DNA from: a virus
Taxonomy: Duplodnaviria; Caudoviricetes
DNA: 64,000 nucleotides
Direction: 5' to 3' (one strand)
Virus record (IMG/VR): IMGVR_UViG_2784746770_000001
Span: 1-64,000 of that record
Shown: piece after piece, positions 4,432 through 61,857 of the stretch
Position numbering within the stretch: the stretch's first letter is position 1
How the letters are laid out: every line of letters starts with the position of its first letter
Translations under genes and position numbers: made by a program
The notes under the pieces: generated by a model
The model's database searches: none
Told to the model about the DNA's origin: nothing
The model's input: only the letters and a program-made list of their open reading frames with translations

Positions 4432-7400
4432 GTGACTGCACCACCGGCGTTCCGGGCCGGCACGACCGCTCTCGTTCGCGCCGTTGCGCGTCCGGGCATG
4501 GCCGGGCTTCCCTTCCCGGACTTCGACGACCGCTCCTTCTCCGCCGCCGAGCGGGACGAGACCACCGCTGACCGCGTTGCCTGGGTGCGCGCGGTCTGGA
4601 GCGACCCCGCTCTGGCCGAGGCCGTACGACACGCCAGCCCGGACCTGGGATCCCAAATCGAGACACTGTGCGCGTCCGCCGCACCCCCCGCGCGTGACGT
4701 ACGGCGTATCGGGCTCTCCCTGACCCGGTACCTCCTTCGTGCCGGTTGCCGGGCCACCCCGTTCGGCCTGTTCGCCGGCGTCGCCACCGCTGCCTTCGGC
4801 GATCGGACGGACGTCACCTGGGGACAGGACCATGTGGTCGTCGCGCGGGCCAGTGCCGAGTGGCTGTCCAAGCTCGTTGAGCAGCTGGAGAAGAGCGGGG
4901 AGTTACTGCCGCTGCTGTCCGTTGCCGTCAACAGCACGGCCTTCGTACGGGACGGCCACCTGATCGTCCCGTACCAGGACGACGGACGGCCCGGACAGCG
5001 CAGAGCCGTGGAGGCCTCCGTCGAGCTGTCGACTCCGGTACGCAGCGTCCTCGCCGCGGCGGGCGCGCCGATCCGGTTCGAGGACCTGGGCGCGGAGCTG
5101 TCGTCGGAGTTCCCCGCCGTTCCGCCCGAGCGGGTACACGGGCTGCTGGCAGGGCTGATCCGCCGGCGCGTGCTCCTCACGAACCTCCAGGCGCCGGCCA
5201 CCGAGACCGATGCTCTCGGGTACGTCCTCGCGCAGCTCGACACGATACAAGCCGATACCCTCGCGCCGCTGGCCCGGACGATCCAGGACCTCCACGCCGT
5301 CCACACGGGCCTGCGGCAGTGCGACTCTGCCGGCGACCGCGAGGCGGTGGCCGCCCTGATGCGGGAGCTGGTGCCGGGCCTTCGCCGTCACCCCCTGGCG
5401 CTCGACCTCCGCCTCGATGCGCACCTCCGGCTCCCGAACGAGGTGGCGCGCGAAGTCGAGCGTGCCGCGACCGTGCTCACGCGGCTCAGCGCCCGCCCGT
5501 ACGGGACCCGCGGGTGGGGGGAGTATCACCAGCGGTTCTACGAGCGCTACGGCATCGGCACGATGGTGCCCCTGCTCGACGTCGTCGCCGACAGCGGGAT
5601 CGGCTACCCCGACGGCTACCCCGGGGCCCCGGCGGGCGCCCGCCGGCGACGTGTCTCTCCCCGCGACGACGTGCTGGTCCGGCTCGCCCAGGCCGCCGCG
5701 CTCGACGGCCACGACGAGGTGGTGCTCACCGACGAGATGATCGCCGCCCTGGACGTCGGGCCCGAGGAACCGAGGGTGCCACCGCACCTGGAGATCGGCG
5801 TGCGGCTGCACGCCACGAGCATCGAGGAGGCGCGGCGCGGCCGGTTCACCGTGGAGGTCGCGAGCGTGTCCCGTGGCGTCGGGGTGAGCACCGGCCGCTT
5901 CGCCAGCGTCCTGGGCCCCGCCGCGCGTGAAGCGCTGTGCGCGGAGCTGGCCGACCTGCCCACAGCCGACGCCGGTACCGACCCCGCCCAGCTCTCCTTC
6001 CCCCCGCTTCTGCCCGACACCGCGCACGTCACCCGAACCCCTCGTGTCCTGCCGCTCCTCATCAGCTTGCAGGAGCACCGGCCGCCGGCCGCCACCGTGC
6101 TCACCCCGGCCGATCTCGCGGTGGCCTGCGACGGCCGCCGGATGTACCTGGCCGCACCGGGTCTCGGCCGCCGCATCGAGGCCGTAGGTATGCACGCGTT
6201 GAACCTCACCGAACACACTCCGCCGCTGGCCCGTCTGCTCACGGAGCTCTCCCGCGCCCAGTGTTCCCAGGTGACGGTCTTCGACTGGGGTGCCGCCGCG
6301 GCGATGCCGTTCCTCCCGCGCCTGCGCTACGGCCGTACCGTGCTCGCCCCGGCCCGCTGGCGGCTGGACGCCTCCGACCTGCCCGGCCGGGACCGTCCCG
6401 CCGCAGAATGGAGCCTCGCCCTGTCCGGGTGGCGCAACCGCCGACGCTTGCCCCAGCACGTGCAGCTCGTCGAAGACGACCGGCTGCTCCCCCTCGACCT
6501 CGCCCAGGCCGCCCACCGGAGCCTGCTACGCCAGCACCTCGACCGCACCCCCTCCGCGGTGCTCACCGAGGCGCCCCGGCCGGAGGCGTACGGCTGGAGC
6601 CAGGGCCGCGCGCACGACATCGTCGTCCCCCTCAAGGCGACCGGGCGCCCCGCGTGGCCGCCGCTGCCCCAGCCGACCCCGGCCCGCACGCTCTCGCAGG
6701 AGCAGATGCAGACGCCGGCCGCGTCCTCGGTGCTGCTGGCCGCTCTGTACGGGGACCAGCGCCGCCAGGACGCCGTGCTGACCCGGCACGTCCCCGACCT
6801 CATCCGCCGGCTCGGTGCTCCGCCGTGGTGGTTCATCAGGTTCCGCGACCCCGGCCAGCACCTTCGCCTGCGCCTCGCGTTGACGGACCCGGACGACTTC
6901 GCCGACACCGCCCACACGGTGAGCGCGTGGGCCGACGAACTGCGCGCCGCCGGGCTGCTGACGGACCTGCGGTACCCCACCTCCTACCGGGAGATGGGCC
7001 GCTGGGGCTCCGGGCCCGCGTGGGACGCCGCCGAGACGGTGTTCCGGGCGGACTCGCGCGCCGTCGTCGCCCAGCTTGCCCAGCCGCGGCGCCCGCAGCA
7101 GCGCACGCTGGTGGCCGCGCACACGCTCGCGATCGCCTCGGCGTTCCTCGGCAGCGCGGAGGCCGGTACGCGCTGGCTGATCGACCACATCCCTCACCAG
7201 CCGCCCGGGGCGATCCCCCGGCCGCAGTTCGCGGAAGCCGTGCGCCTGGCCGATCCGCGCGACGACTGGGCAGCGCTGCGTGCGGCCCCCGGCGGCGAGG
7301 CGATCGTGACGGCGTGGGCCGACCGCGCCTTTGCCCTCGCCGCGTACCGAAAGCACCTCCCGGGCCCGGACACCGCGGGCATCGCCGTGGACGACGTCCT

Positions 7401-44717: not shown

Positions 44718-45599
44718 ATGTCGGCTGTAGATATCGGCATCGACTACTCGCGGTTCACCCCTGTCTTCGCCTTCGCCAGCGGCAAGGGCGGCGTCGGAAA
44801 GACGACCCTGACCGGCAACAACGCCACCAAGACCGCGAGCAAGGGCATCCCGACGCTCGCGATCGACGCCAATGGGCAGGGCAACCTCCGCCGCGAGTTC
44901 GGGATAGGAGAAGGCGACGGGGGCAAGGCGTTCGTTCAGGCGCTGCGCGACGGCACCCCCCTCGTGCCCGTCAAGAACGTTCGGCCGAACCTGGACGTCG
45001 TGCTCGGCGGCAAGGAGCTGCGAGCGATCAACACCGTGTTCATGGAGATTGCGCAGGAGTCGGGGCCGATCGCGGCCTTCTGCCGCCTCGCACAGTGCTT
45101 GCAGCCGCTCCTGAACCAGTACGGCGTCGTCTGGATCGACGCGCCCCCGGAGAACCCCAACGTCCTCACTCTCTGCCTGTGCGCGAGCAGGTGGCTGGTG
45201 ACCCCCGTCAAGATGGACGTCTGCTCGCTGGAAGACGCCCTGAAAGACATCTCCGACACCTTCAAGGCCGCCAGGAGCGTAAACCCGCTCCTCCAACTCC
45301 TCGGAGTTGTCCACTTCGGCTCTCCCAGCGGTGCCACCAGCATCCACAGGGAAGTCGTTGCCGAGGCCCGAAAGCTCCTCGGCAAGAGCACCCACGTCTT
45401 CGAGGAGTCGATCCACGCCTCGCCCAAGACGGCGAAGCTGGCCCGCGAGCTCGGGCTCTCCGTGTGGGAGCTGGAGGCGAAGAGCCGCGAGGAAGACAAG
45501 CGCATGGCTGAGCAGATCAGCAACCTCGCCGGCGCTCACGACAAGCTGACGACCGCCCTCTTGCGCCAGATGCGCGCCCGAATGGAGATCACTGCATGA
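44718..45599 (+). CDS. parA: ParA-family partition ATPase
   Basis: FASGKGGVGKTT deviant Walker A, IDANGQGN, WIDAPP; start uncertain. Confidence 0.92.
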   Translation: MSAVDIGIDYSRFTPVFAFASGKGGVGKTTLTGNNATKTASKGIPTLAIDANGQGNLRREFGIGEGDGGKAFVQALRDGTPLVPVKNVRPNLDVVLGGKELRAINTVFMEIAQESGPIAAFCRLAQCLQPLLNQYGVVWIDAPPENPNVLTLCLCASRWLVTPVKMDVCSLEDALKDISDTFKAARSVNPLLQLLGVVHFGSPSGATSIHREVVAEARKLLGKSTHVFEESIHASPKTAKLARELGLSVWELEAKSREEDKRMAEQISNLAGAHDKLTTALLRQMRARMEITA

Positions 45600-53546: not shown

Positions 53547-54746
53547 GTGCAGGACTGGCGATTCATCGCTCAGAGGGCTCTGCCGGAGACGATCCTCGAC
53601 TGGGAAGTCCCCCTCTCCCTGACGTCCAACCCCCGCCGAGAGCTGTCCGGGCCTGGGTCGATGACGGGGGTGATCGAGCCGGAGTACCAGCGCATGATCG
53701 GCTCCGACGGCAAGCCGATCATCCAGGAGTGGGGCACCAAGCTCTACCTGGAGGTCAACGGGGCGATCAGGTGGGGAGGGATCGTCACCAAGACCTCCTA
53801 CGACAGCGGGAAGGCGACCATCCAGTGCGAGGGCTTCTCCTCGTACGCGCACGGCATCCCGTACGAGGACTACCGGATCTCCGGCCAGCTGATCACCCCG
53901 AAAGACCCGTACGCCGGCAAGGACAAAAACCACGATGGGTGGGTGGACGGGAAGAAGGGCAAACAGCGCATCCCCAAGCCCCCCAAGCCGTACGGCGGGC
54001 CGCGCTTTGACGTCTTCGACGCCTACCGGGAGATCTGGCGCCACATCCAGACCCGCTCGTACGGCAACATCGGGCTGGTCGTCGACCCACACGACCTCGG
54101 CGAGCCCCTGGGCGCAAAGGACGGATCAGACCCCTGGGAGCTCGCGTGGTGGGACAACCCCGACTGCGGACAGGTCCTCGACACCCTGACCCGGACCACC
54201 CCCTTTGACTGGCGCGAAGAGCACACCTGGGCCTCCCGCATCGGAAACAAGATCTCCCACCGGATCCGGCTCGGGAGGCCGCGCCTGGGCCGGCGTCGTA
54301 CCGATCTGCGTTTCGCCGACGGCGAGAACATCATCGCCATCGCGCGCCCCGAGGGGATGGGCGACGAGTACGCCAACGACATCGTCGTCCTGGGCAAGGG
54401 CGAGGGCCGCAAGATGGCGAGGGCGCAGGTCCACGCCTACGACGGCCGACTGCGCCGCGTCGCGACGGTGACGGACAAGACGCTCTCCTCCGCCTCCGCG
54501 CTCGCCACCCGCGGCCGCGCCGAACTTGCCGGACGCACACGCCAGCTCCAGATTCCGCAGATCCAGATCATCGACCACCCCAACGCGAGGTTCGGGTCGT
54601 GGGCGCTCGGCGACGACATCCGCGTCCAGGTCGAAGTCCCGTGGGTCGGAGTCGTCGACGTCTGGCACCGGATCATCGCCGACGAGGTCAGCGCCGACGG
54701 CATCCTGACCCTCTATCTGCGCCGCTCCGACAGCTTCCACTACTGA
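53547..54746 (+). CDS. Minor tail / baseplate hub protein
   Basis: ELSGPG, IRWGGI, RLGRRRTDLRF..GEN, LG.GEG, GDDIRV. Confidence 0.75.
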   Translation: MQDWRFIAQRALPETILDWEVPLSLTSNPRRELSGPGSMTGVIEPEYQRMIGSDGKPIIQEWGTKLYLEVNGAIRWGGIVTKTSYDSGKATIQCEGFSSYAHGIPYEDYRISGQLITPKDPYAGKDKNHDGWVDGKKGKQRIPKPPKPYGGPRFDVFDAYREIWRHIQTRSYGNIGLVVDPHDLGEPLGAKDGSDPWELAWWDNPDCGQVLDTLTRTTPFDWREEHTWASRIGNKISHRIRLGRPRLGRRRTDLRFADGENIIAIARPEGMGDEYANDIVVLGKGEGRKMARAQVHAYDGRLRRVATVTDKTLSSASALATRGRAELAGRTRQLQIPQIQIIDHPNARFGSWALGDDIRVQVEVPWVGVVDVWHRIIADEVSADGILTLYLRRSDSFHY

Positions 54747-54800
54747 CCGGCCCCGGCCAGCGGGCGACACTAACCCCAGCGATCCTCACCATGCCCGGCC

Positions 54801-57347
54801 ATGGTGAGGATTCTGGAGACGGCCACAGGGGCGCAGGGGCTCGCCCGCGCCCTGCACGACTTCGAGCTGCGGCTGCGGGCCGTCGAGCGCAGCACGCAGG
54901 CTTCGCACACGTCCATCGAGGGCGGTGCGATGGACATCTACGACGAGCAGGGCCAGCTCAAGGGCAGCGTGGGCGTGCAGCCCGACGGCGGCGTCGCCCT
55001 GGTCCCGGTCAACACCGACCCGCCGCCGACCCCCATGCCGCCGACCGTCGAACCGGTCCTCGCCGGGCTGGTCATCGGCTGGGACGGCACCTGGGACGAC
55101 GCCTACTCCAGTCCCAGCGACTTCTCCCTCGTCCAGGTCCACGTCGGCCCCACCGCCGACTTCACCCCCGACCTGTCCACGCACGTCGCCACGATCACCG
55201 CGCAGCTCGGCGGGACCGTCACCGTCGCGATCGAGGGCTACAGCCCGGTGTGGGCGCGGCTCGTCGCGCAGAACACCGCGCAGGTCACCGGGGTGCCGTC
55301 CGGCGCCACGCAGGGCACGCCCCGGCAGGCCGTAGGCCAGGACCTCATCGACGGGATCATCTCCGAGGTCAAGCTCGCCACCGACGCGGTCACCGCGGCG
55401 AAGATCGCCCTCGGCGCCGTCACCGAGGGCGCCATCGCCAACAACGCGGTCACCGCCGGGAAGATCCTCGCCGGGTCGGTCACCACCGCCCACCTGACCG
55501 CCCTCGCCGTGACCGCGGAGAAGATCGCCGCGCTCGCCATCACCACCGAGAAGATCGCCGCCCTGGCGATCACCGCGGACAAGCTCGCCGTGAACGCGGT
55601 GACGGCGACGAAGATTGCCGCCGGAACCATCGACGCCACCCACATCAAGACCGGCTCGCTCACCGCCGAGAAACTCGCCCTCGGCGTCGACGGCAACGTC
55701 ATCCCCGACCCCTCCTTCGAGGGCGCCATCTCCGCCCAGCGCGTGGCGGGCCTGCCCGACTGGACGATCGCCACCACCGGCAACGGCACCCCCCGCTCCC
55801 TGCGCACCGACCTCAGCGTGGACCCCAACCCGGGCAAGACGTTGCTCCTCGCCGAGCTGCCCGCGGTCCCCGGACAGAAGTTCTGGTTCGCTGCCGACTA
55901 CATGGTCCCCACGGACAGCACCGTCGAGAGCATCACCATGTGGGTCGAGTGGCGCGACCAGAACGGCAACTATGTCGAGGACTCCAGGATCCAGCTCACC
56001 GGCACCGCGGTTGTGAAGGGCGGGTGGAAACGGATCTCCGGGGTCCCGGACAAGGCCGCGGCCGCGAACACGACCACGGCCCGCATCTTCATCGGCGGGG
56101 TCGTACGGGCGGGCGCCCTGTACTTCGACAACGCGGCCGCCCGGGTGGTGCTTGCCTCCGGCTTCGCTGGGGCTCGCGCCGAGCTGAGCCCCCGCGGCTT
56201 GCAGCTCTTCGACGACGACGGCGAGGAGGCCGTCGCACTGGTCACCGGCCGCCCCAACTATCTGACTCTCTCGGACAACGGGCAGCCCGTCGCCACCATC
56301 GACCAGGGCGGGAACGCCGCCTTCGGCAACCTCGCCGTTGCCGGGACCCTCGAAGTCGGCGGCGACCCGCTGGAGAAGATCCTCGCCCAGTACCCCCGCG
56401 GCCTCGTCGCCCTCGACTACATGGCCACCGCGGTCCAGGCCGGGACCACCGAGTACGGATACGTGGAGCTCGCGTTCGACGCGGACCCCACCCGCATGTA
56501 CCGGATCGTCTTCGACGCCTACGCGGACCCGTCCGTAGGAGGAGGAGAGGTCGCGGTCGTCCTGCGCGACGGAGGCGCCTCCACCCCCTCGATCAACTCC
56601 ACCCAGATCCAGTCGATCACTCAGCCCCTGGTGTGGGCCGGATGGAACCGGGTCCACCTGGAGACCATCCGGTCCGGGGCTGCGTTCGGCGCAGGCCTCC
56701 ACCGCCTCCTGATCTCCTTCTGGGCTCAGGCGGGTCCGGCCGGCCAGACCGTCCGGCTCCTCGGCGCGGCCGGCTACCCCGGCATCTTCTACGTCGAGGA
56801 CGTCGGCCCCTACCTGGGGGAGACCGGCGTTTATAACTCCGGAGGCGGCACTGTCACCCAGCCGGTGAAGACCTACACCAAGACGTACGCCGCCTCATGG
56901 TCCGGCTCGTACTCCAACCGCTCCGCCTACAACTCCTTCTGGGGGAACTCCTGCTACCAGGGCTACTACAGCTCCACCAACGGCATGCAGGCGTCCCTGA
57001 TCGGATTCCCCGCCCAGCTCTCCACCGACCTCTCCGGCGCCAGTATCCAGAAGGCCGAGGTCTACCTCTACTTCGACCACTGGTACTCCAACTCGGGCGG
57101 CACCGCGGTCATCAAGGCCCACAAGCACGCCTCCCGGCCCGCGACCTTCTCCTGCGACGCCGAGTCCAAGGCCGTCACCTGGGCCCGCAATCAGGGTAAA
57201 TGGGTCGATATTACGTCGGTGTTCGATTCCACCTCGTGGCGCGGTATCGCGCTCGACCCGAATAGCTCCTCGCTCACCTACTACGGCCGCGCCCGTGGCG
57301 TCGGCCAGAGCTACCCCCCGCAGCTCAAAGTCACCTACACCAAGTAA
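54801..57347 (+). CDS. Tail fibre / receptor-binding protein with 10-aa VTA.KI repeats and a carbohydrate-binding-like domain
   Basis: FN3-like start (LVIGWDG), about ten AVTA.KIA repeats (~55360-55680), GNVIPDPSFE, Tyr/Trp-rich C-terminus ending P.L.VTY. Confidence 0.8.
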   Translation: MVRILETATGAQGLARALHDFELRLRAVERSTQASHTSIEGGAMDIYDEQGQLKGSVGVQPDGGVALVPVNTDPPPTPMPPTVEPVLAGLVIGWDGTWDDAYSSPSDFSLVQVHVGPTADFTPDLSTHVATITAQLGGTVTVAIEGYSPVWARLVAQNTAQVTGVPSGATQGTPRQAVGQDLIDGIISEVKLATDAVTAAKIALGAVTEGAIANNAVTAGKILAGSVTTAHLTALAVTAEKIAALAITTEKIAALAITADKLAVNAVTATKIAAGTIDATHIKTGSLTAEKLALGVDGNVIPDPSFEGAISAQRVAGLPDWTIATTGNGTPRSLRTDLSVDPNPGKTLLLAELPAVPGQKFWFAADYMVPTDSTVESITMWVEWRDQNGNYVEDSRIQLTGTAVVKGGWKRISGVPDKAAAANTTTARIFIGGVVRAGALYFDNAAARVVLASGFAGARAELSPRGLQLFDDDGEEAVALVTGRPNYLTLSDNGQPVATIDQGGNAAFGNLAVAGTLEVGGDPLEKILAQYPRGLVALDYMATAVQAGTTEYGYVELAFDADPTRMYRIVFDAYADPSVGGGEVAVVLRDGGASTPSINSTQIQSITQPLVWAGWNRVHLETIRSGAAFGAGLHRLLISFWAQAGPAGQTVRLLGAAGYPGIFYVEDVGPYLGETGVYNSGGGTVTQPVKTYTKTYAASWSGSYSNRSAYNSFWGNSCYQGYYSSTNGMQASLIGFPAQLSTDLSGASIQKAEVYLYFDHWYSNSGGTAVIKAHKHASRPATFSCDAESKAVTWARNQGKWVDITSVFDSTSWRGIALDPNSSSLTYYGRARGVGQSYPPQLKVTYTK

Positions 57348-57359
57348 CCGGAGGACCCC

Positions 57360-57710
57360 ATGCCCGTATCCACCCTCGTTGACGAGCACGCCCTCATGTC
57401 CAGCATCACCTTCGCCGCCCGCGTCCGCGCCGGGTACGCCCGCATCGCCCGCGAAGTCCTCGCCGAAGACCCCAGCACCGTCGGCCACCCCCTGCGCTCC
57501 GCGCTCGCCCGCGGCACCCTCAACCCCTCCGACCTCACCGGCCCCGGCTACGCCCCTGTCATCGCCACCGACCCCGTCATCTCCGCCGCGGCCGCCGCCG
57601 GCCACGTCGACGGCCAGCCCGACAGCGCCCAGGCCGCGGTCACCGACGAGATGATCCTCGACGCCGTCCGCCGCGCGTGGAACCTGAACGCCGGCGTCAC
57701 CGGAACGTAG
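57360..57710 (+). CDS. Small tail-associated protein
   Basis: GGAGG RBS; F.ARV...TD..I..AV...WN..AG. Confidence 0.7.
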   Translation: MPVSTLVDEHALMSSITFAARVRAGYARIAREVLAEDPSTVGHPLRSALARGTLNPSDLTGPGYAPVIATDPVISAAAAAGHVDGQPDSAQAAVTDEMILDAVRRAWNLNAGVTGT

Positions 57711-57826
57711 GCGCGCACGCCGCGACACAAGCCGACCGGTCGTGCACCGTACGGCAATGCGGGGAGCCGCGGGCCTCCAGGCCCCGGCTCCCGCGCACCC
57801 ATATCCACTTTCGAGGAGGGGCGCCC

Positions 57827-58327
57827 GTGGACTGGCTCACTTCCCTGGCGCCCGTCATCGGCCCCCTGGCAGGCGCGGGTGGCGTTGTCGCAGGAGCCTG
57901 GTTCAGCTACCGCCAGGTCAAGCGCCGAGGCGACGCCGACGAGCGGGTCGCCTCCGTGCAGGCCGCTACCTCGGCGCAGGCCGCCGAGGGGCAGACCTAC
58001 GTCGAGGCCATGAAGACGGTGACCGCCGGGTTCTCCTCCCTGCTCGACCAGCAGCGAGGGATGCTCGATCAGCAGAAGGTCGTCCTGGAGCAGGAGCGCG
58101 CGGTGCACGCCCAGACCATCGAGCGCGTCACCGTCCTGGAGGCCGGACAGCTCGAACTCCAGCGGGAGGTCCGGCACATGCGTGAGGAGCAGCGCAAGGA
58201 CCGTCGGTGGAAGGCCGCCGCGCTCGACTACATCCGCGTCCTGCTCGACAGCCTCCGCTCGCTGGGCCGCACCGCTCCCGCGCCACCCGACGAGATCGCC
58301 GAGGACATCAACCGGCCCGCCGAGTAG
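57827..58327 (+). CDS. Membrane-anchored coiled-coil protein in the lysis position
   Basis: GAGGAGG RBS; one N-terminal TM, coiled coil, Y...L.......P.PP ending. Confidence 0.7.
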   Translation: MDWLTSLAPVIGPLAGAGGVVAGAWFSYRQVKRRGDADERVASVQAATSAQAAEGQTYVEAMKTVTAGFSSLLDQQRGMLDQQKVVLEQERAVHAQTIERVTVLEAGQLELQREVRHMREEQRKDRRWKAAALDYIRVLLDSLRSLGRTAPAPPDEIAEDINRPAE

Positions 58328-58400
58328 CCACCGCGCGACGCAAGACCCCTGTGCCGTGCAGGGTCCAGTCCTCTCGTCCCCGACAGACAAGGACCCCACC

Positions 58401-58718
58401 ATGAACACCCTCAACACCCTCGCCTTTGCCTCGGGAGTTGGCGCCTTCCTGCCGCTCCTGACCGCGGTCGTGCAGCAGCCCTTCTGGTCGGCCCGGGCCA
58501 AGCGGATCGTGGCCGTCGTCGTCGCTCTGCTCGCCGGCGTCGTCACCGTCGCCAGCACGGGTGGCATCGAGCAGTTCACCCACGGCCTGCCCACGCTCGG
58601 CACGATCGCGGCGGTCCTGGCCGCCTCGCAGGCCGCGCACGACCTCGTCTGGAAGCCGAGCACGATTACGGCCAAGATCGAGTCCGTGACGAGCCCGAAG
58701 CCGGGCACAACGGCCTAA
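58401..58718 (+). CDS. Putative holin
   Basis: Three hydrophobic segments; LPLLTAVVQQP.WS...K; AAGGA RBS. Confidence 0.7.
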   Translation: MNTLNTLAFASGVGAFLPLLTAVVQQPFWSARAKRIVAVVVALLAGVVTVASTGGIEQFTHGLPTLGTIAAVLAASQAAHDLVWKPSTITAKIESVTSPKPGTTA

Positions 58719-58732
58719 TCGGTCCGCTGAGG

Positions 58733-58756
58733 CCCGCGCCCGGTCTCGGGCGCGGG
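58733..58756 (+). terminator. 10-bp stem-loop after the holin
   Basis: CCCGCGCCCG-GTCT-CGGGCGCGGG. Confidence 0.55.
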
Positions 58757-58765
58757 TATCATCCC

Positions 58766-58981
58766 CGCGAAGGTGAAGTGGCCTCGCTGCCGCCGATCCC
58801 GCCGTTGAAGACAGCGCCTCGTACCTTTCTGGGGGCCCTCCGGGGGCCCTGGCCGACGCGAGGAAGAGCGAATCGAGTCCACTCCGCGCCTAACCGGCGC
58901 CGAGGGCCGGGGAGCCAATCGCTCTGGCGATGAGCCGGCACACGGAGGGGTCGGTCGCAGCGGGGCCACTTCACCTTCGCG
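58766..58981 (+). ncRNA. Putative ~215-nt structured RNA or structured 5' leader
   Basis: 38-bp closing helix with three G.U pairs on the + strand; internal hairpins; TATCAT -10-like box at 58757-58762. Confidence 0.55.
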
Positions 58982-59028
58982 CACCGGCGTCCCGCCGGCA
59001 CACGCATGACTCAGGAGGACGCGCCGGA

Positions 59029-59655
59029 ATGGTGGCATCGCAAAAGGCCCTCCCCGCAGGCGAGGCGAGGCCGGACCACGGCGAGCGCCCGAAGCCCCGA
59101 CGGTGGAAAGACCCAGAGCCGGAGGCCGTTGCCGCCCGGACTGCCGAGCTGGTGCAGATCAGCAAGCACAAGGACCGTCTCAAGCAGGTCGAGCGCCTAG
59201 CGCCCCACCTTGTCCAGTTCCTCACTGTCACCGCCCTCCCGTGGGAGAAGCGGCCCGCCGACTATGAGGTTCAGGCCCTGGCCTTCCGCTCGCCCGAGCT
59301 TGCCCGGACGGTTCGTCCGACTCTCGCAGCCATCGCCCGAGAGCCGGAAAAGTACCTGCCGCAGGGGCCGGAGGAGCCCAGCAAGCGTCACCGCAACCGG
59401 ATCACCGAGCTGCGCAGTCGCGCCCTGGTGGAAGACCGGCTGGTGTACCGAGTGCAGGCTGCCGAAGCGGCCAAGCGCGGCGTCTTCTTGCCGGAGTTCA
59501 ACCCCCGAGGGCGCGCTCGCCAGCGACTCGCGGCCGAGCACCCGGAGCGCTTCCTCGAACTCGTCCGGGAAGAGGAAGCCGCCCAGGCGAAGAAGAACGA
59601 AGTCGAGCGCCGCGAGCGTGCGGCAGCTCGGCGGGTCGACCGAACGCCGTCCTGA
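59029..59655 (+). CDS. Hypothetical basic helical protein (~208 aa)
   Basis: AGGAGG RBS; no family recognised. Confidence 0.65.
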   Translation: MVASQKALPAGEARPDHGERPKPRRWKDPEPEAVAARTAELVQISKHKDRLKQVERLAPHLVQFLTVTALPWEKRPADYEVQALAFRSPELARTVRPTLAAIAREPEKYLPQGPEEPSKRHRNRITELRSRALVEDRLVYRVQAAEAAKRGVFLPEFNPRGRARQRLAAEHPERFLELVREEEAAQAKKNEVERRERAAARRVDRTPS

Positions 59656-59674
59656 TCGACCCGCACCCTCATGA

Positions 59675-60350
59675 AGGCGTACCCCCTACCGCGGGGGTAC
59701 GCCTTCGTCGTTCACGTACGGCTTCGCTTCTGGGTACGGCTTCGCTTCTGGGTACGGCTTCGCCTTCGGGTACGCCTTCGCCTCTGGGTACGGCTTCGCC
59801 CGCTGGTACCCCTTCGCCTTCGGGTACGGCTTCGCCTTCGGGTACGGCTTCGCCTTCGGGTACGGCTTCGCCTTCGGGTACGGCTTCGCCTTCGGGTACG
59901 GCTTCGCCCTCGGGTACGCCTTCGGCCTCGGTACGTCTTCGTCGTTCACGTACGCCTTCGCCTCCGGTCCGGGTACGGCTTCGCATATTCGCAGGTCAGA
60001 TGGGGCGTACCTCGATGTACGCCTTCGAAGCTATCTCCAGACGTACGCCCCGTACGGATGACTGCGGAGCCTGCCATGTACGCCGGCCTTCCCCCGTGAA
60101 GGCGTACCCGCACGGACAGCAAGGCGTACCCCTACGTCTGGCCTGCACCGGCGCCCCGTACGCCTTCACGTGCACGGGTACGCCTTGGGCTCGGGGCCAA
60201 GGCGTACCCGTACGTCTTCGGGGCGTACCTTCCGGGAGGGCATGTACGCCTTGAGGGCGCACCGAGTCGTACCTTGGCGGAGAGAGATGGGCGTACATAC
60301 GCCGGAGGTTCAGGGCGTACGTACGCCTTCCCGGCAGGCGTACGTACGCC
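59675..60350. repeat. GTAC-dense array: 18-bp tandem repeats (GGGTACGGCTTCGCCTTC consensus, ~59695-59985) followed by dispersed GTACGCC/GGCGTAC sites in both orientations
   Basis: About 36 GTAC counted by hand in ~670 bp between convergent genes. Confidence 0.9.
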
Positions 60351-60453
60351 CTGAGCTCTCCGACGGGCGACGTGACGTGACGTGACGGGGCCGGATCATC
60401 ACGTCCCCCGGCCGCCCCGGAGGGACGGTTGCCGGAGCGCGAGGTGCGTCACG

Positions 60454-61857
60454 TCATGAGGTGGTCGGGCTTGGCACGATGGCGGCCTCGATCGCCTCGA
60501 TGTTGCGCGCCGGGACGTACATGCCGACGCTGCCGTACAGCTCCGCGGCCGCTGTCTGCCCTCTGGTAGTCATCGCGTCGAGGGTGGCCTGGCGGTGCTC
60601 CGCGATCAGTTTCTGCAGCCTGACCTGAGAGGTGATCTGCTTCAGGTCGGTCACCCCCTTCGGCAGGACCGAAGCGAGGTGTTCGTGGATCTCCTTGCCG
60701 AGCATGTCGGCCTGGAGCCGCGCCTCGATGAGCATCCTCGCCCGCGCCCTGTCCTGGGGGGTTTCCCGTTTCGGCGGAGCCTTCGGCGTCTTGGCCTTGC
60801 CGATGTCTTCCAGGGCCAGGGCGACGGCGGAGTTGGCGTTGACCTGGCCCCACGGGGAGGTGACGACGATGCGCTCCAGGGCCGCCGCGCCGAACCGGTC
60901 GCGGATGCCGGTCAGGGCCTCCTTGTCGGTCCGGGCGTCGTCGAGGAGCTTCTGGACTAGGGCGGGATCGGGCAGAGACGGCTCCTCCGCCTCATCCTCG
61001 GCGTCCGGGCGATCGCCGGCGGGTTCCTCCTCGCCGAGGTCGTCCTCCGCGGGCTCTTCCTCGCTGAGGTCGCTCTCGGAGGGGTGCAGCGTCGGCGGTA
61101 CGGCCCACGGGTCGTTCTCCGGGTCCGGGGTCCGGTTCTCCAGAGTCATCTGCGCCAGGAAGGCTTCGTGTGCGTCCGCGCGTGCCTGCTCGCGTTCGGC
61201 GATCTCGTCGGCCAGTTCGCGGCCGCGCCGGAGGACGTACTTCTCCAGCGTGATCTCGGGCTCGTCGGGGATGCGCGCCTGGAGCATTCCGTTGTCGGCC
61301 GCGACGTTGAGCACTTCGTGCAGCGCCTCGCGGCTGTACCAGACGTCGGGCCGACGAAGCCTGGCGAGGTAGGTGTCGATCGGGGAGCTCACGGCCGTCG
61401 GGTGGTCGCGGTCTCCGTCGTCCAGGTCGCCGGGCCGGACCTCGATCTTGAACGCCTGGAGCAAGGCGTACTTCTCAGCAGCGGTCATCGCCTTGTTCGA
61501 CGCCTTGTCGGAGACGTCGAACGCCTCGCCCACCGTGACGATTCCGGTGTCCATGACGTCGCCGGACGGGCCGCGGACGGCCCATCGGACCTGGATGATC
61601 GTCACGTTCATCTTGCCGCGGCTCTGGTGCTCTCTGCTGATGATCTCGGCGGGGAAGATCCGCAGGCCGTACTTCCGCATCGGGCCGGAGCAGGCCCGGA
61701 TCACGTCCTCCGCTTGGCGGAAGTTGTACTTCTGGTCCTGGTTGGTGCCGTCCTTGCCGATCGGCGCGATCTCTCGCTGAGCGGCGATGAACGCCTTGTC
61801 GACCGACCACGACGTCAGCTCGTCGAGGTCCGGCATGTCGAGAGTGGATTCGGCCAC
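60454..61857 (-). CDS. ERF-family ssDNA-annealing protein with long C-terminal extension
   Basis: IGKDGTN..QKYNFR..EDV, GEAFD.SDKA.NKAMT.A.KYALLQ.F.I. Confidence 0.85.
   Translation of the reverse strand: MAESTLDMPDLDELTSWSVDKAFIAAQREIAPIGKDGTNQDQKYNFRQAEDVIRACSGPMRKYGLRIFPAEIISREHQSRGKMNVTIIQVRWAVRGPSGDVMDTGIVTVGEAFDVSDKASNKAMTAAEKYALLQAFKIEVRPGDLDDGDRDHPTAVSSPIDTYLARLRRPDVWYSREALHEVLNVAADNGMLQARIPDEPEITLEKYVLRRGRELADEIAEREQARADAHEAFLAQMTLENRTPDPENDPWAVPPTLHPSESDLSEEEPAEDDLGEEEPAGDRPDAEDEAEEPSLPDPALVQKLLDDARTDKEALTGIRDRFGAAALERIVVTSPWGQVNANSAVALALEDIGKAKTPKAPPKRETPQDRARARMLIEARLQADMLGKEIHEHLASVLPKGVTDLKQITSQVRLQKLIAEHRQATLDAMTTRGQTAAAELYGSVGMYVPARNIEAIEAAIVPSPTTS

Follow-up and report, generated by a model that had tools for sequence, protein, structure and literature searches.

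We describe here a conserved structured RNA of about 200–215 nucleotides (nt) in the IMG/VR virus record IMGVR_UViG_2784746770_000001 (Caudoviricetes), a sequence of 129,292 bases with a CheckV completeness estimate of 94%, whose first 64 kb (positions 1 to 64,000, hereafter the window) form the stretch under study. The RNA lies on the + strand between positions 58766 and 58981 and is followed by a gene for an orphan protein of 208 amino acids (aa) that starts at 59029. It is very likely a real conserved structured RNA that forms the leader of the 59029 gene, and covariation among its homologues excludes a chance origin. A preliminary description, made from the letters of the window alone, had proposed an unannotated multi-branched structured phage RNA at this place; the homologues share a conserved fold with compensatory changes, and among the roles offered in that description the leader of the 59029 gene fits best, because the RNA always stands directly upstream of 59029 homologues. 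The element appears to represent a new RNA family; in general terms it belongs to a known kind, that of structured leaders or non-coding RNAs of phages.

Fold of the window element

The two arms of the closing stem, 58766–58805 and 58942–58981, face each other over 40 positions with 35 Watson-Crick pairs, three G·U pairs and two mismatches, exactly as the preliminary description had counted them, and an inverted-repeat scan returned the arms as 88% complementary over 40 nt with 136 nt between them. The predicted minimum free energy (MFE) of the + strand from 58757 to 58990 is −138 kcal/mol, compared with −109.9 ± 5.2 kcal/mol for 200 dinucleotide shuffles (z −5.42), none of which was as good, whereas the − strand of the same segment reaches −130.8 kcal/mol (z −3.82). 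The parts of the RNA are:

58766–58805, + strand: 5′ arm of the closing stem P1 (inverted repeat, covariation)
58804–58812, + strand: GTTGAAGAC, conserved junction and foot of P2 (family consensus GUUGAGA)
58813–58871, + strand: P2, a long variable arm (fold, covariation)
58872–58882, + strand: ATCGAGTCCAC, conserved 3′ foot of P2 and junction (family consensus AUCGAGACCAC)
58882–58904, + strand: P3, hairpin CTCCGCGCC-TAACC-GGCGCCGAG (fold, covariation)
58905–58944, + strand: P4, GCCGG/CCGGC enclosing a GGAGC-loop-GCTCT hairpin and the bulge GGCGATGAG, then ACACG; conservation within the family is highest here
58942–58981, + strand: 3′ arm of the closing stem P1 (inverted repeat)

Within P2 of the window, CCTCGT (58817–58822) pairs with GCGAGG (58858–58863) around GGGCCC/GGGCCC (58833–58838/58844–58849), and the tip is C/U-rich (CCTTTCT at 58824–58830 and CCCTCC at 58836–58841), a property present in every subgroup of the family. 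These inner helices of P2 and the GCGCC/GGCGC helix of P3 were already named in the preliminary description and are backed by covariation. The further helix named there, AGAGCGA/TCGCTCT (58865–58871/58919–58925), did not hold up in the same way: it is part of the MFE fold of the window, but it competes with the family-wide P4 (GGAGC 58911–58915/GCTCT 58921–58925) and is seen, with identical letters and thus without covariation, only in the window and its nearest relative, L256. The most conserved motif of the RNA core, GCCGGCACACG, lies at 58934–58944, and a second copy follows at 58994–59004, just past the 3′ arm of P1. This second copy could provide an alternative pairing with GGCCGG (58905–58910); it is absent from the printed spacer of L256.

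Members of the RNA family

The tail-fibre protein of the window is 50% identical to gp71 of the Streptomyces phage Gilgamesh (129,136 bp), and a related sequence, with a GGGTACCATC box, shared motifs and a long closing stem of other letters, is found in the syntenic gap of 338 bp between gp75 and gp76 of Gilgamesh. A strict pattern of the shared motifs matched 14 IMG/VR contigs, and all 14 loci were true members, while a loose pattern added two further members among 66 loci. The covariance model R1 (214 positions, 73 pairs), built from 16 sequences, assigned 56–215 bits to these source sequences and the two new loci, with 119 bits for the window, and at most 17 bits to the other 64 of the 82 searched sources, which represent the noise of the loose pattern. 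In species-representative genomes, the pattern scan revealed at least 11 true members among the 80 loci listed, all from Streptomyces or Kitasatospora. In total, 48 full-length members were aligned, 46 of them distinct, and their carriers are phages (including Gilgamesh), prophages and 125–130 kb plasmids of Streptomyces and Kitasatospora. The nearest relative of the window element, L256, has the extra-long P1 in common with it and differs by compensatory changes in P1 and P3.

With blastn, the window element matched nothing in the phage collection, and no copy of the RNA was present in the phage-plasmid pZL12. A 17-nt piece of the stem matched nine loci in IMG/VR, each with a single arm and no partner, which were judged to be chance matches. 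The comparison with Rfam suggested in the preliminary description gave no Rfam 15 match on the element at E ≤ 10 (window positions 57500–61000), and none at E ≤ 1 in the loci of four relatives (38 kb in total). No published description of this RNA was found in literature searches. The main text of an IMG/VR catalogue of 8,495 candidate structured RNAs (PMC10690425) makes no mention of Streptomyces, and the motif may stand unnamed in its supplementary tables.

Covariation and architecture

Collecting homologues and checking them for covariation had likewise been proposed beforehand, and the compensatory changes found in the 48 members support the fold. In the alignment fitted with R1, 88.5% of 3133 cells were paired, compared with 35.3–41.2% in slid controls, double-sided changes were observed in 53 of the 73 pairs, and none of 500 shuffles reached any of the observed measures. 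Alignments based on a covariance model lean towards the structure of that model, and the shuffle control ignores relatedness, both of which count against taking these figures at face value; the argument is therefore carried by the slid controls and by an unfitted MAFFT alignment of 16 sequences, in which 83.8% of the cells were paired (34.9–43.2% when slid) and 32 of 74 pairs had changed on both sides, again with 0 of 500 shuffles as good. In the 40 distinct rows of alignment A5, G·U or U·G occupied 243 cells and A·C or C·A 66, in an alignment whose model itself favours G·U somewhat. This excess indicates that the + strand is the folded one, as had been supposed from the window alone.

The architecture is a four-way junction of P1 to P4. 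P1 comprises 30–40 bp, with double changes in 11 of 17 modelled pairs and in all six inner pairs; its outer extension CGAAGG/CCTTCG is common to the window and L256, and adjacent to it GAAG is replaced by GGGG where CTTC is replaced by CCCC. The foot of P2 contains a tandem G-A internal loop, and every pair of its helices shows double changes (8/8, 4/4 and 7/7). P3, a helix of 8 bp whose loop mostly measures 7 nt, is paired in 95.3% of the cells and carries double changes in six of eight pairs. In P4, GCCGG/CCGGC encloses a small hairpin together with a bulge of 9 nt, and its core GGCCGG...CCGGCACACG is near-invariant, also in the 20 members that were found via the protein alone; a single compensatory change, from C-G to U-A, was observed in L261. 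A pseudoknot-type helix, CAUCG/CGAUG, was considered and rejected, since its support was mixed (one pair was UA in 26 members, CG in 3 and mismatched in 11) and weaker than that of the competing P2 foot.

Organization of the unit and linkage to the 59029 gene

The features that surround the RNA in the window are:

58728–58761, + strand: G+C-rich hairpin (arms 58728–58742/58747–58761, 87%) after the stop of the upstream open reading frame (ORF)
58754–58762, + strand: GGGTATCAT, −10-like box TAnnnT with conserved upstream G's and without a −35 match
58982–59028, + strand: spacer between the RNA and the gene, with a short hairpin CCGGCG-TCC-CGCCGG, GCCGGCACACG at 58994–59004 and the Shine-Dalgarno (SD) sequence AGGAGGA at 59013–59019
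59029–59655, + strand: 59029 gene with an ATG start, encoding the 208-aa orphan, all-helical, Arg-rich protein; constant partner of the RNA
59673–59706, + strand: perfect 14-bp hairpin, 18 nt past the stop codon

The RNA and the gene are inherited together. A search that started from the protein (alignment A4, 20 downstream proteins) led to 29 loci, 14 of them new, all of which had the RNA upstream and on the same strand; a second search, with the single-module proteins of the window type, led to six loci, again all with the RNA (51–105 bits), so that it was present in 35 of 35 loci reached through the protein. In the other direction, 39 members were examined for the gene: 37 have a homologous ORF after the RNA, and the remaining two reach the end of their loci. 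Between the model end and the start codon there are 37–76 nt in the family. In one of the 37, L168 on a Streptomyces ardesiacus contig, the RNA scores 195 bits but the partner gene is truncated at 114 aa, compared with ~273 aa in relatives; a frameshift or decay of this copy could be the cause.

As a single query in IMG/VR, the 59029 protein yielded no relatives; these were reached via Gilgamesh, whose gp76 is 35% identical to it over 130 residues, and via alignments. A profile search among 1.84 billion representatives then gave 82 clusters (50% identity) at E ≤ 1e-3. Members of the family are mostly 160–230 aa long, and the Gilgamesh-type form of ~270 aa is an internal duplication. The AlphaFold2 model of the 59029 protein is all-helical with a mean predicted local distance difference test score (pLDDT) of 83.8; the best result of a wide VIA-align comparison (Z 7.0, HEAT-like helices) is within the noise stated for helical models. 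A reading of the partner as a HEPN RNase was rejected, as the histidine of Rx4-6H is not conserved: its position is occupied by N in P0011 and P0008, two close relatives, and by F in subgroup J.

In 38 of 39 members, a TAnnnT box (TACCAT, TATCAT, TAACAT or TAGCAT) precedes the model start by 5–7 nt. In the window, the box stands 11 nt before the model start because P1 is longer there, by 8–10 bp, and it is 3 nt from the true foot of the stem. The preliminary description had read TATCAT, at 58757–58762, as a −10-like element that sets the transcription start at the 5′ end of the stem, and the conserved box agrees with this placement. All six window-type relatives carry GGTATCAT. The box motif is unique in the 129 kb record, which indicates that it is not a repeated phage-specific signal. 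Actinobacterial promoters often possess only a −10 element of the TAnnnT type, and Streptomyces signals frequently come without a −35 element and without a T-run. Transcription of the RNA, on the + strand, probably depends on its own predicted −10-type promoter and would begin at the foot of P1. A search for sequencing runs with this stretch listed two DNA entries from one study and no RNA run, a result that is neutral as to transcription.

The hairpin at 58728–58761 is likely the end of the late-operon transcript; its 3′ half reaches the GGG that precedes the −10 box, and equivalent hairpins precede the box in most relatives. It has no T-run and hence was not called by the generic signal scan mentioned below. 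In most relatives, the segment between P1 and the ribosome-binding site (RBS) contains one more hairpin, which covaries and whose loop, GAGAGCA, is conserved (e.g., L031 at ~5945–5965, L137 and L233), with stems such as GGCCCG/CGGGCC, GGUUCG/CGAACC and GGCUUG/CAAGUC; this hairpin is missing in the window and in subgroups D and J. Inspection of the printed spacers that separate RNA and gene revealed neither a TAnnnT box nor a U-tract terminator, and the scan of the window found none either, so that, in physical terms at least, this mRNA has the RNA as its leader. The hairpin at 59673–59706 is likely the end of the unit.

Genomic surroundings, carriers and repeat array

The unit is located at the boundary between the late (tail/lysis) operon and convergent recombination genes of a temperate Streptomyces phage or phage-plasmid. 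Upstream of it on the + strand are an 848-aa tail-fibre-like gene (54801–57347, PHROG tail families) and then small ORFs, among them one of 106 aa (58398–58718, + strand) that looks by eye like a membrane protein. Very long spurious ORFs are present in other frames and on the opposite strand (at 54599–56836 and in many other places; e.g., 745 aa and 638 aa over the tail-fibre gene), as is typical of DNA with 70% G+C, so that ORF lists of this sequence call for caution. Downstream, a convergent gene of the Erf family (60454–61857, − strand) lies beyond an array of short repeats:

59670–60400, no strand assigned: short-repeat array of 18-nt tandem units and GGCGTAC-type palindromes, between the unit and the Erf gene

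In the window, this array contains 12 tandem 18-nt units together with inverted and palindromic copies, such as GGCGTACGTACGCC, which occurs three times at 60290–60350. An array of a short, often palindromic motif in 5–32 copies follows the gene in nine of ten subgroups, and the motif varies by subgroup:

Most subgroups: GGCGCGCCC, up to 15 copies in 900 nt
Subgroup E: GATCGCCCC, 32 copies
Subgroup F: CGCGCCACC, 23 copies
Window: AAGGCGTAC-type
Subgroup J: none

It looks like an array of binding sites, that is, an origin, a centromere or a cluster of operators. Weak Rfam matches to mir-938 in the array were dismissed as artefacts of the palindromes. In subgroup J, the order is tail fibre, small genes, the RNA with its gene, and then a convergent gene with a match to phrog_1366 (E 9e-33), a family of unknown function, and a weak one to a Sak4-like annealing family (E 2.6e-5).

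The RNA is present in three Streptomyces plasmids of 125–130 kb (CP108533.1, which is L265, NZ_CP107934.1 and CP109288.1), one of which is confirmed as circular and complete, and also on several stand-alone contigs of ~126 kb; the plasmid carriers indicate that part of the Gilgamesh-like phage group is carried as plasmids. None of the three plasmids has an annotated feature under the RNA match, and in the one that was fetched the RNA lies between two hypothetical genes. Other copies are found inside chromosome-sized contigs. One copy each was observed in the window's own record, in Gilgamesh and in three of three whole host genomes, and eight of 151 Streptomyces species representatives contain the RNA, always as a single copy. 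The record itself encodes a ParA-like AAA_31 ATPase (68 bits) at 44763–45275, inside the late region of the window, and a tyrosine recombinase (30.6 bits) at its far end (128149–128739), while no match to ParB_N or to a large serine recombinase was found in it.

Proposed function and alternatives

The order of elements, hairpin, promoter, RNA, gene for the 208-aa protein and hairpin, suggests a self-contained unit of which the RNA would be the structured 5′ leader. We propose that it acts in cis on its own mRNA, either through post-transcriptional control or as a binding platform for the product of the gene, and we consider the chance that this statement is correct as a whole, including the mechanism, to be about even. 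We see in the near-invariant junction core a putative recognition site, whose most plausible ligand, the encoded Arg-rich protein, would thereby exert feedback on its own dose. In addition, the fully paired 5′ end may stabilise the message, the 30–40 bp of P1 constitute a possible RNase III site, and the C/U-rich tip of P2 may contact the RBS. In line with the latter, cognate combinations of P2 tip and RBS pair better than non-cognate ones in the larger subgroups, with differences in A (−2.1 kcal/mol), B (−3.3), C (−4.7), H (−3.0) and D (−1.0).

Several observations weigh against this proposal. The gain of cognate P2 tip/RBS pairs is approximately nil in subgroup F (−0.4 kcal/mol) and in subgroup I, that of the window (−0.24), and cognate pairs are worse in E, G and J. 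Compared with shuffled arms, the mean z is −1.4, with 13 of 39 members below −2, and nested folding pairs the SD sequence with the interior of the element in only one of 45 members. Nested folding leaves part of the SD sequence free (median unpaired probability 0.40). An anti-SD role of the P2 tip is suggestive only. A generic scan for sigma-70 promoters and terminators, which needs a −35 element and a T-run, calls nothing in 58300–60500. Moreover, a closing stem of 30–40 bp together with an own promoter is more common in stable non-coding RNAs than in translational operators. With regard to the partner, RNA binding is proposed for an orphan protein that has no recognisable RNA-binding fold: no useful match was obtained in Pfam, PHROGs, a PDB sequence profile or the ESM Atlas, and Foldseek gave no usable lead in PDB (best E 0.17). 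The sole PADLOC match among the partner proteins was a weak one to RT_UG33 (E 0.0043) in one of 20 members, and two long relatives of the partner end in a stretch that resembles a helix-turn-helix (HTH) by eye, pointing to DNA rather than to RNA.

A first alternative is a stable trans-acting RNA: a domain of ~200 nt would be released from the leader, for example by cleavage in or after P1, and would work on targets elsewhere, either free or in a particle that it forms with a host factor or the protein encoded downstream; this explanation is unlikely but deserves to be taken seriously. The predicted promoter at the foot of a 30–40 bp terminal stem and the near-invariant core amid variable peripheral arms are in its favour, as is the strict co-inheritance with one protein family, which is reminiscent of known RNA-protein modules, and the conserved GAGAGCA-loop hairpin after P1 in most relatives could end or process such an RNA. 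It is opposed by the lack of a U-tract terminator between the RNA and the gene, both in the window scan and in the printed spacers, by the lack of an Rfam family match and by a partner without a recognisable RNA-binding fold. We regard as improbable an involvement in the replication, copy number or partition of an extrachromosomal prophage, in which the RNA would prime or license replication or would tune the dose of a DNA-binding maintenance protein, the 59029 product, acting on the array. The copy-control RNA offered in the preliminary description belongs to this alternative. Three plasmids of 125–130 kb and stand-alone contigs of ~126 kb are among the carriers, the unit is situated just past the virion genes, where cluster A mycobacteriophages have a replication non-coding RNA, and the array of a short motif that differs between subgroups follows the gene in nine of ten of them; the HTH-like ends of the long partner relatives (by eye) would also be consistent with this idea. 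However, some members are in chromosome-sized contigs and hence integrated, subgroup J has the RNA and the gene without an array, and the record contains no ParB_N match and has its ParA-like gene 13 kb away. About as improbable, in our view, is a reading in which the RNA and the Arg-rich protein constitute a new kind of ribonucleoprotein module of Streptomyces phage-plasmids, with the RNA as scaffold or guide, that would act on the palindromic array for control of replication, partition or immunity of the ~126 kb extrachromosomal prophage.

It is very unlikely that the RNA is a riboswitch-like element of the 5′ untranslated region that senses an ion or a small molecule. Its position, the multi-stem junction and the near-invariant unpaired nucleotides between variable peripheral arms are as expected for such a sensor, but a P1 of 30–40 bp is implausible as a switch when measured against known riboswitches, the regulated gene is a phage orphan and neither a transporter nor an enzyme, no known class matches, and no alternative terminator or sequestering hairpin is conserved across the subgroups. 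Readings at the DNA level, such as a miniature inverted-repeat transposable element (MITE), a cruciform or a recombination site, as well as a retron msr/msd or a chance palindrome, are practically negligible. The long terminal inverted repeats and the resemblance of the closing stem to retron a1/a2 arms would speak for them; the covariation, the excess of G·U over A·C, the fixed genomic position and the absence of an RVT_1 match in the 129 kb record speak against them. Dispersed copies, which the preliminary description had named as the sign of a MITE, were looked for in the record, Gilgamesh, the three host genomes and the 151 species representatives; with one copy per genome the MITE reading was rejected and the element was not refuted. 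A type III toxin-antitoxin system (ToxIN-like) was rejected as well, as the RNA is single-copy and not tandem, PADLOC reported no ToxN model at E ≤ 1, and the partner model is all-helical; the RNA antitoxin offered in the preliminary description is at most a weak candidate.

Well-supported structured RNAs of ~200 nt with tens of covarying pairs are rare, and most of those that were pursued had distinctive biochemistry. The RNA presented here accompanies one orphan protein family only and occurs in large temperate phages of Streptomyces, part of which are maintained as circular plasmids. It thus offers a testable entry to the regulation of a boundary module beside a large array in phage-plasmids and to the role of the orphan protein. 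As Gilgamesh is recorded on S. lividans JI 1326, a phage with a copy of the RNA and its host are on record for experiments.

Comparison with known systems

Retron msr-msd elements share with our RNA a promoter, an end-paired RNA of ~150–250 nt and an ORF a few tens of nt further on. The terminal inverted repeats of the a1/a2 type are present here (arms of 40 nt) but are not diagnostic alone, and the likeness noted in the preliminary description goes no further, with no match to PF00078 (RVT_1) at E ≤ 1 in the complete record of 129,292 bases and an adjacent ORF that is all-helical and has no Pfam match. The RNAs 6S, Ms1 and YrlA resemble the element in a long terminal stem made of the 5′ and 3′ ends and in a structured interior of ~180–300 nt. 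They differ from it in that our RNA has no Rfam match, which also disfavours the earlier suggestion of a 6S/Ms1-like decoy, forms a four-way junction instead of a central bubble and is tied to a phage orphan gene. A bacterial Y RNA of the YrlA type was rejected, as the record has no match to TROVE/Rsr (PF05731) and ARAGORN predicted no tRNA- or tmRNA-like gene in the window. The immunity RNAs P1 c4 and P4 CI provide another parallel, as they lie upstream on the same transcript and their loops are complementary to the RBS region of the next gene. Rfam holds the C4 family. In contrast to these, our RNA has no Rfam match, is three times larger, and its complementarity between P2 tip and RBS is only suggestive.

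Prophage replication in cluster A mycobacteriophages requires a non-coding RNA just past the virion genes, and this RNA also suffices for it (Wetzel et al. 2020, PMC7157519). This ori RNA is similar to ours in being an unannotated actinobacteriophage RNA of plasmid-capable prophages with a central location downstream of the virion genes and near repeats of a maintenance type. It is, however, oriented opposite to the structural genes, needs no ORF and lies beside parABS, and the passages that describe it mention no conserved fold (PMC7157519), whereas our RNA is co-directional and always has one protein gene downstream.

The lambda N leader, consisting of nutL and an RNase III-sensitive stem, is not known to resemble the ~200 nt four-way junction in sequence or fold and is located at the head of an early operon, whereas the unit described here is at the end of a late operon and encodes an orphan protein. 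In its arrangement, it nevertheless resembles the unit that we propose, with a phage promoter, a structured leader that binds the protein encoded downstream, and a long duplex cleavable by RNase III, through which the dose of that protein is set.

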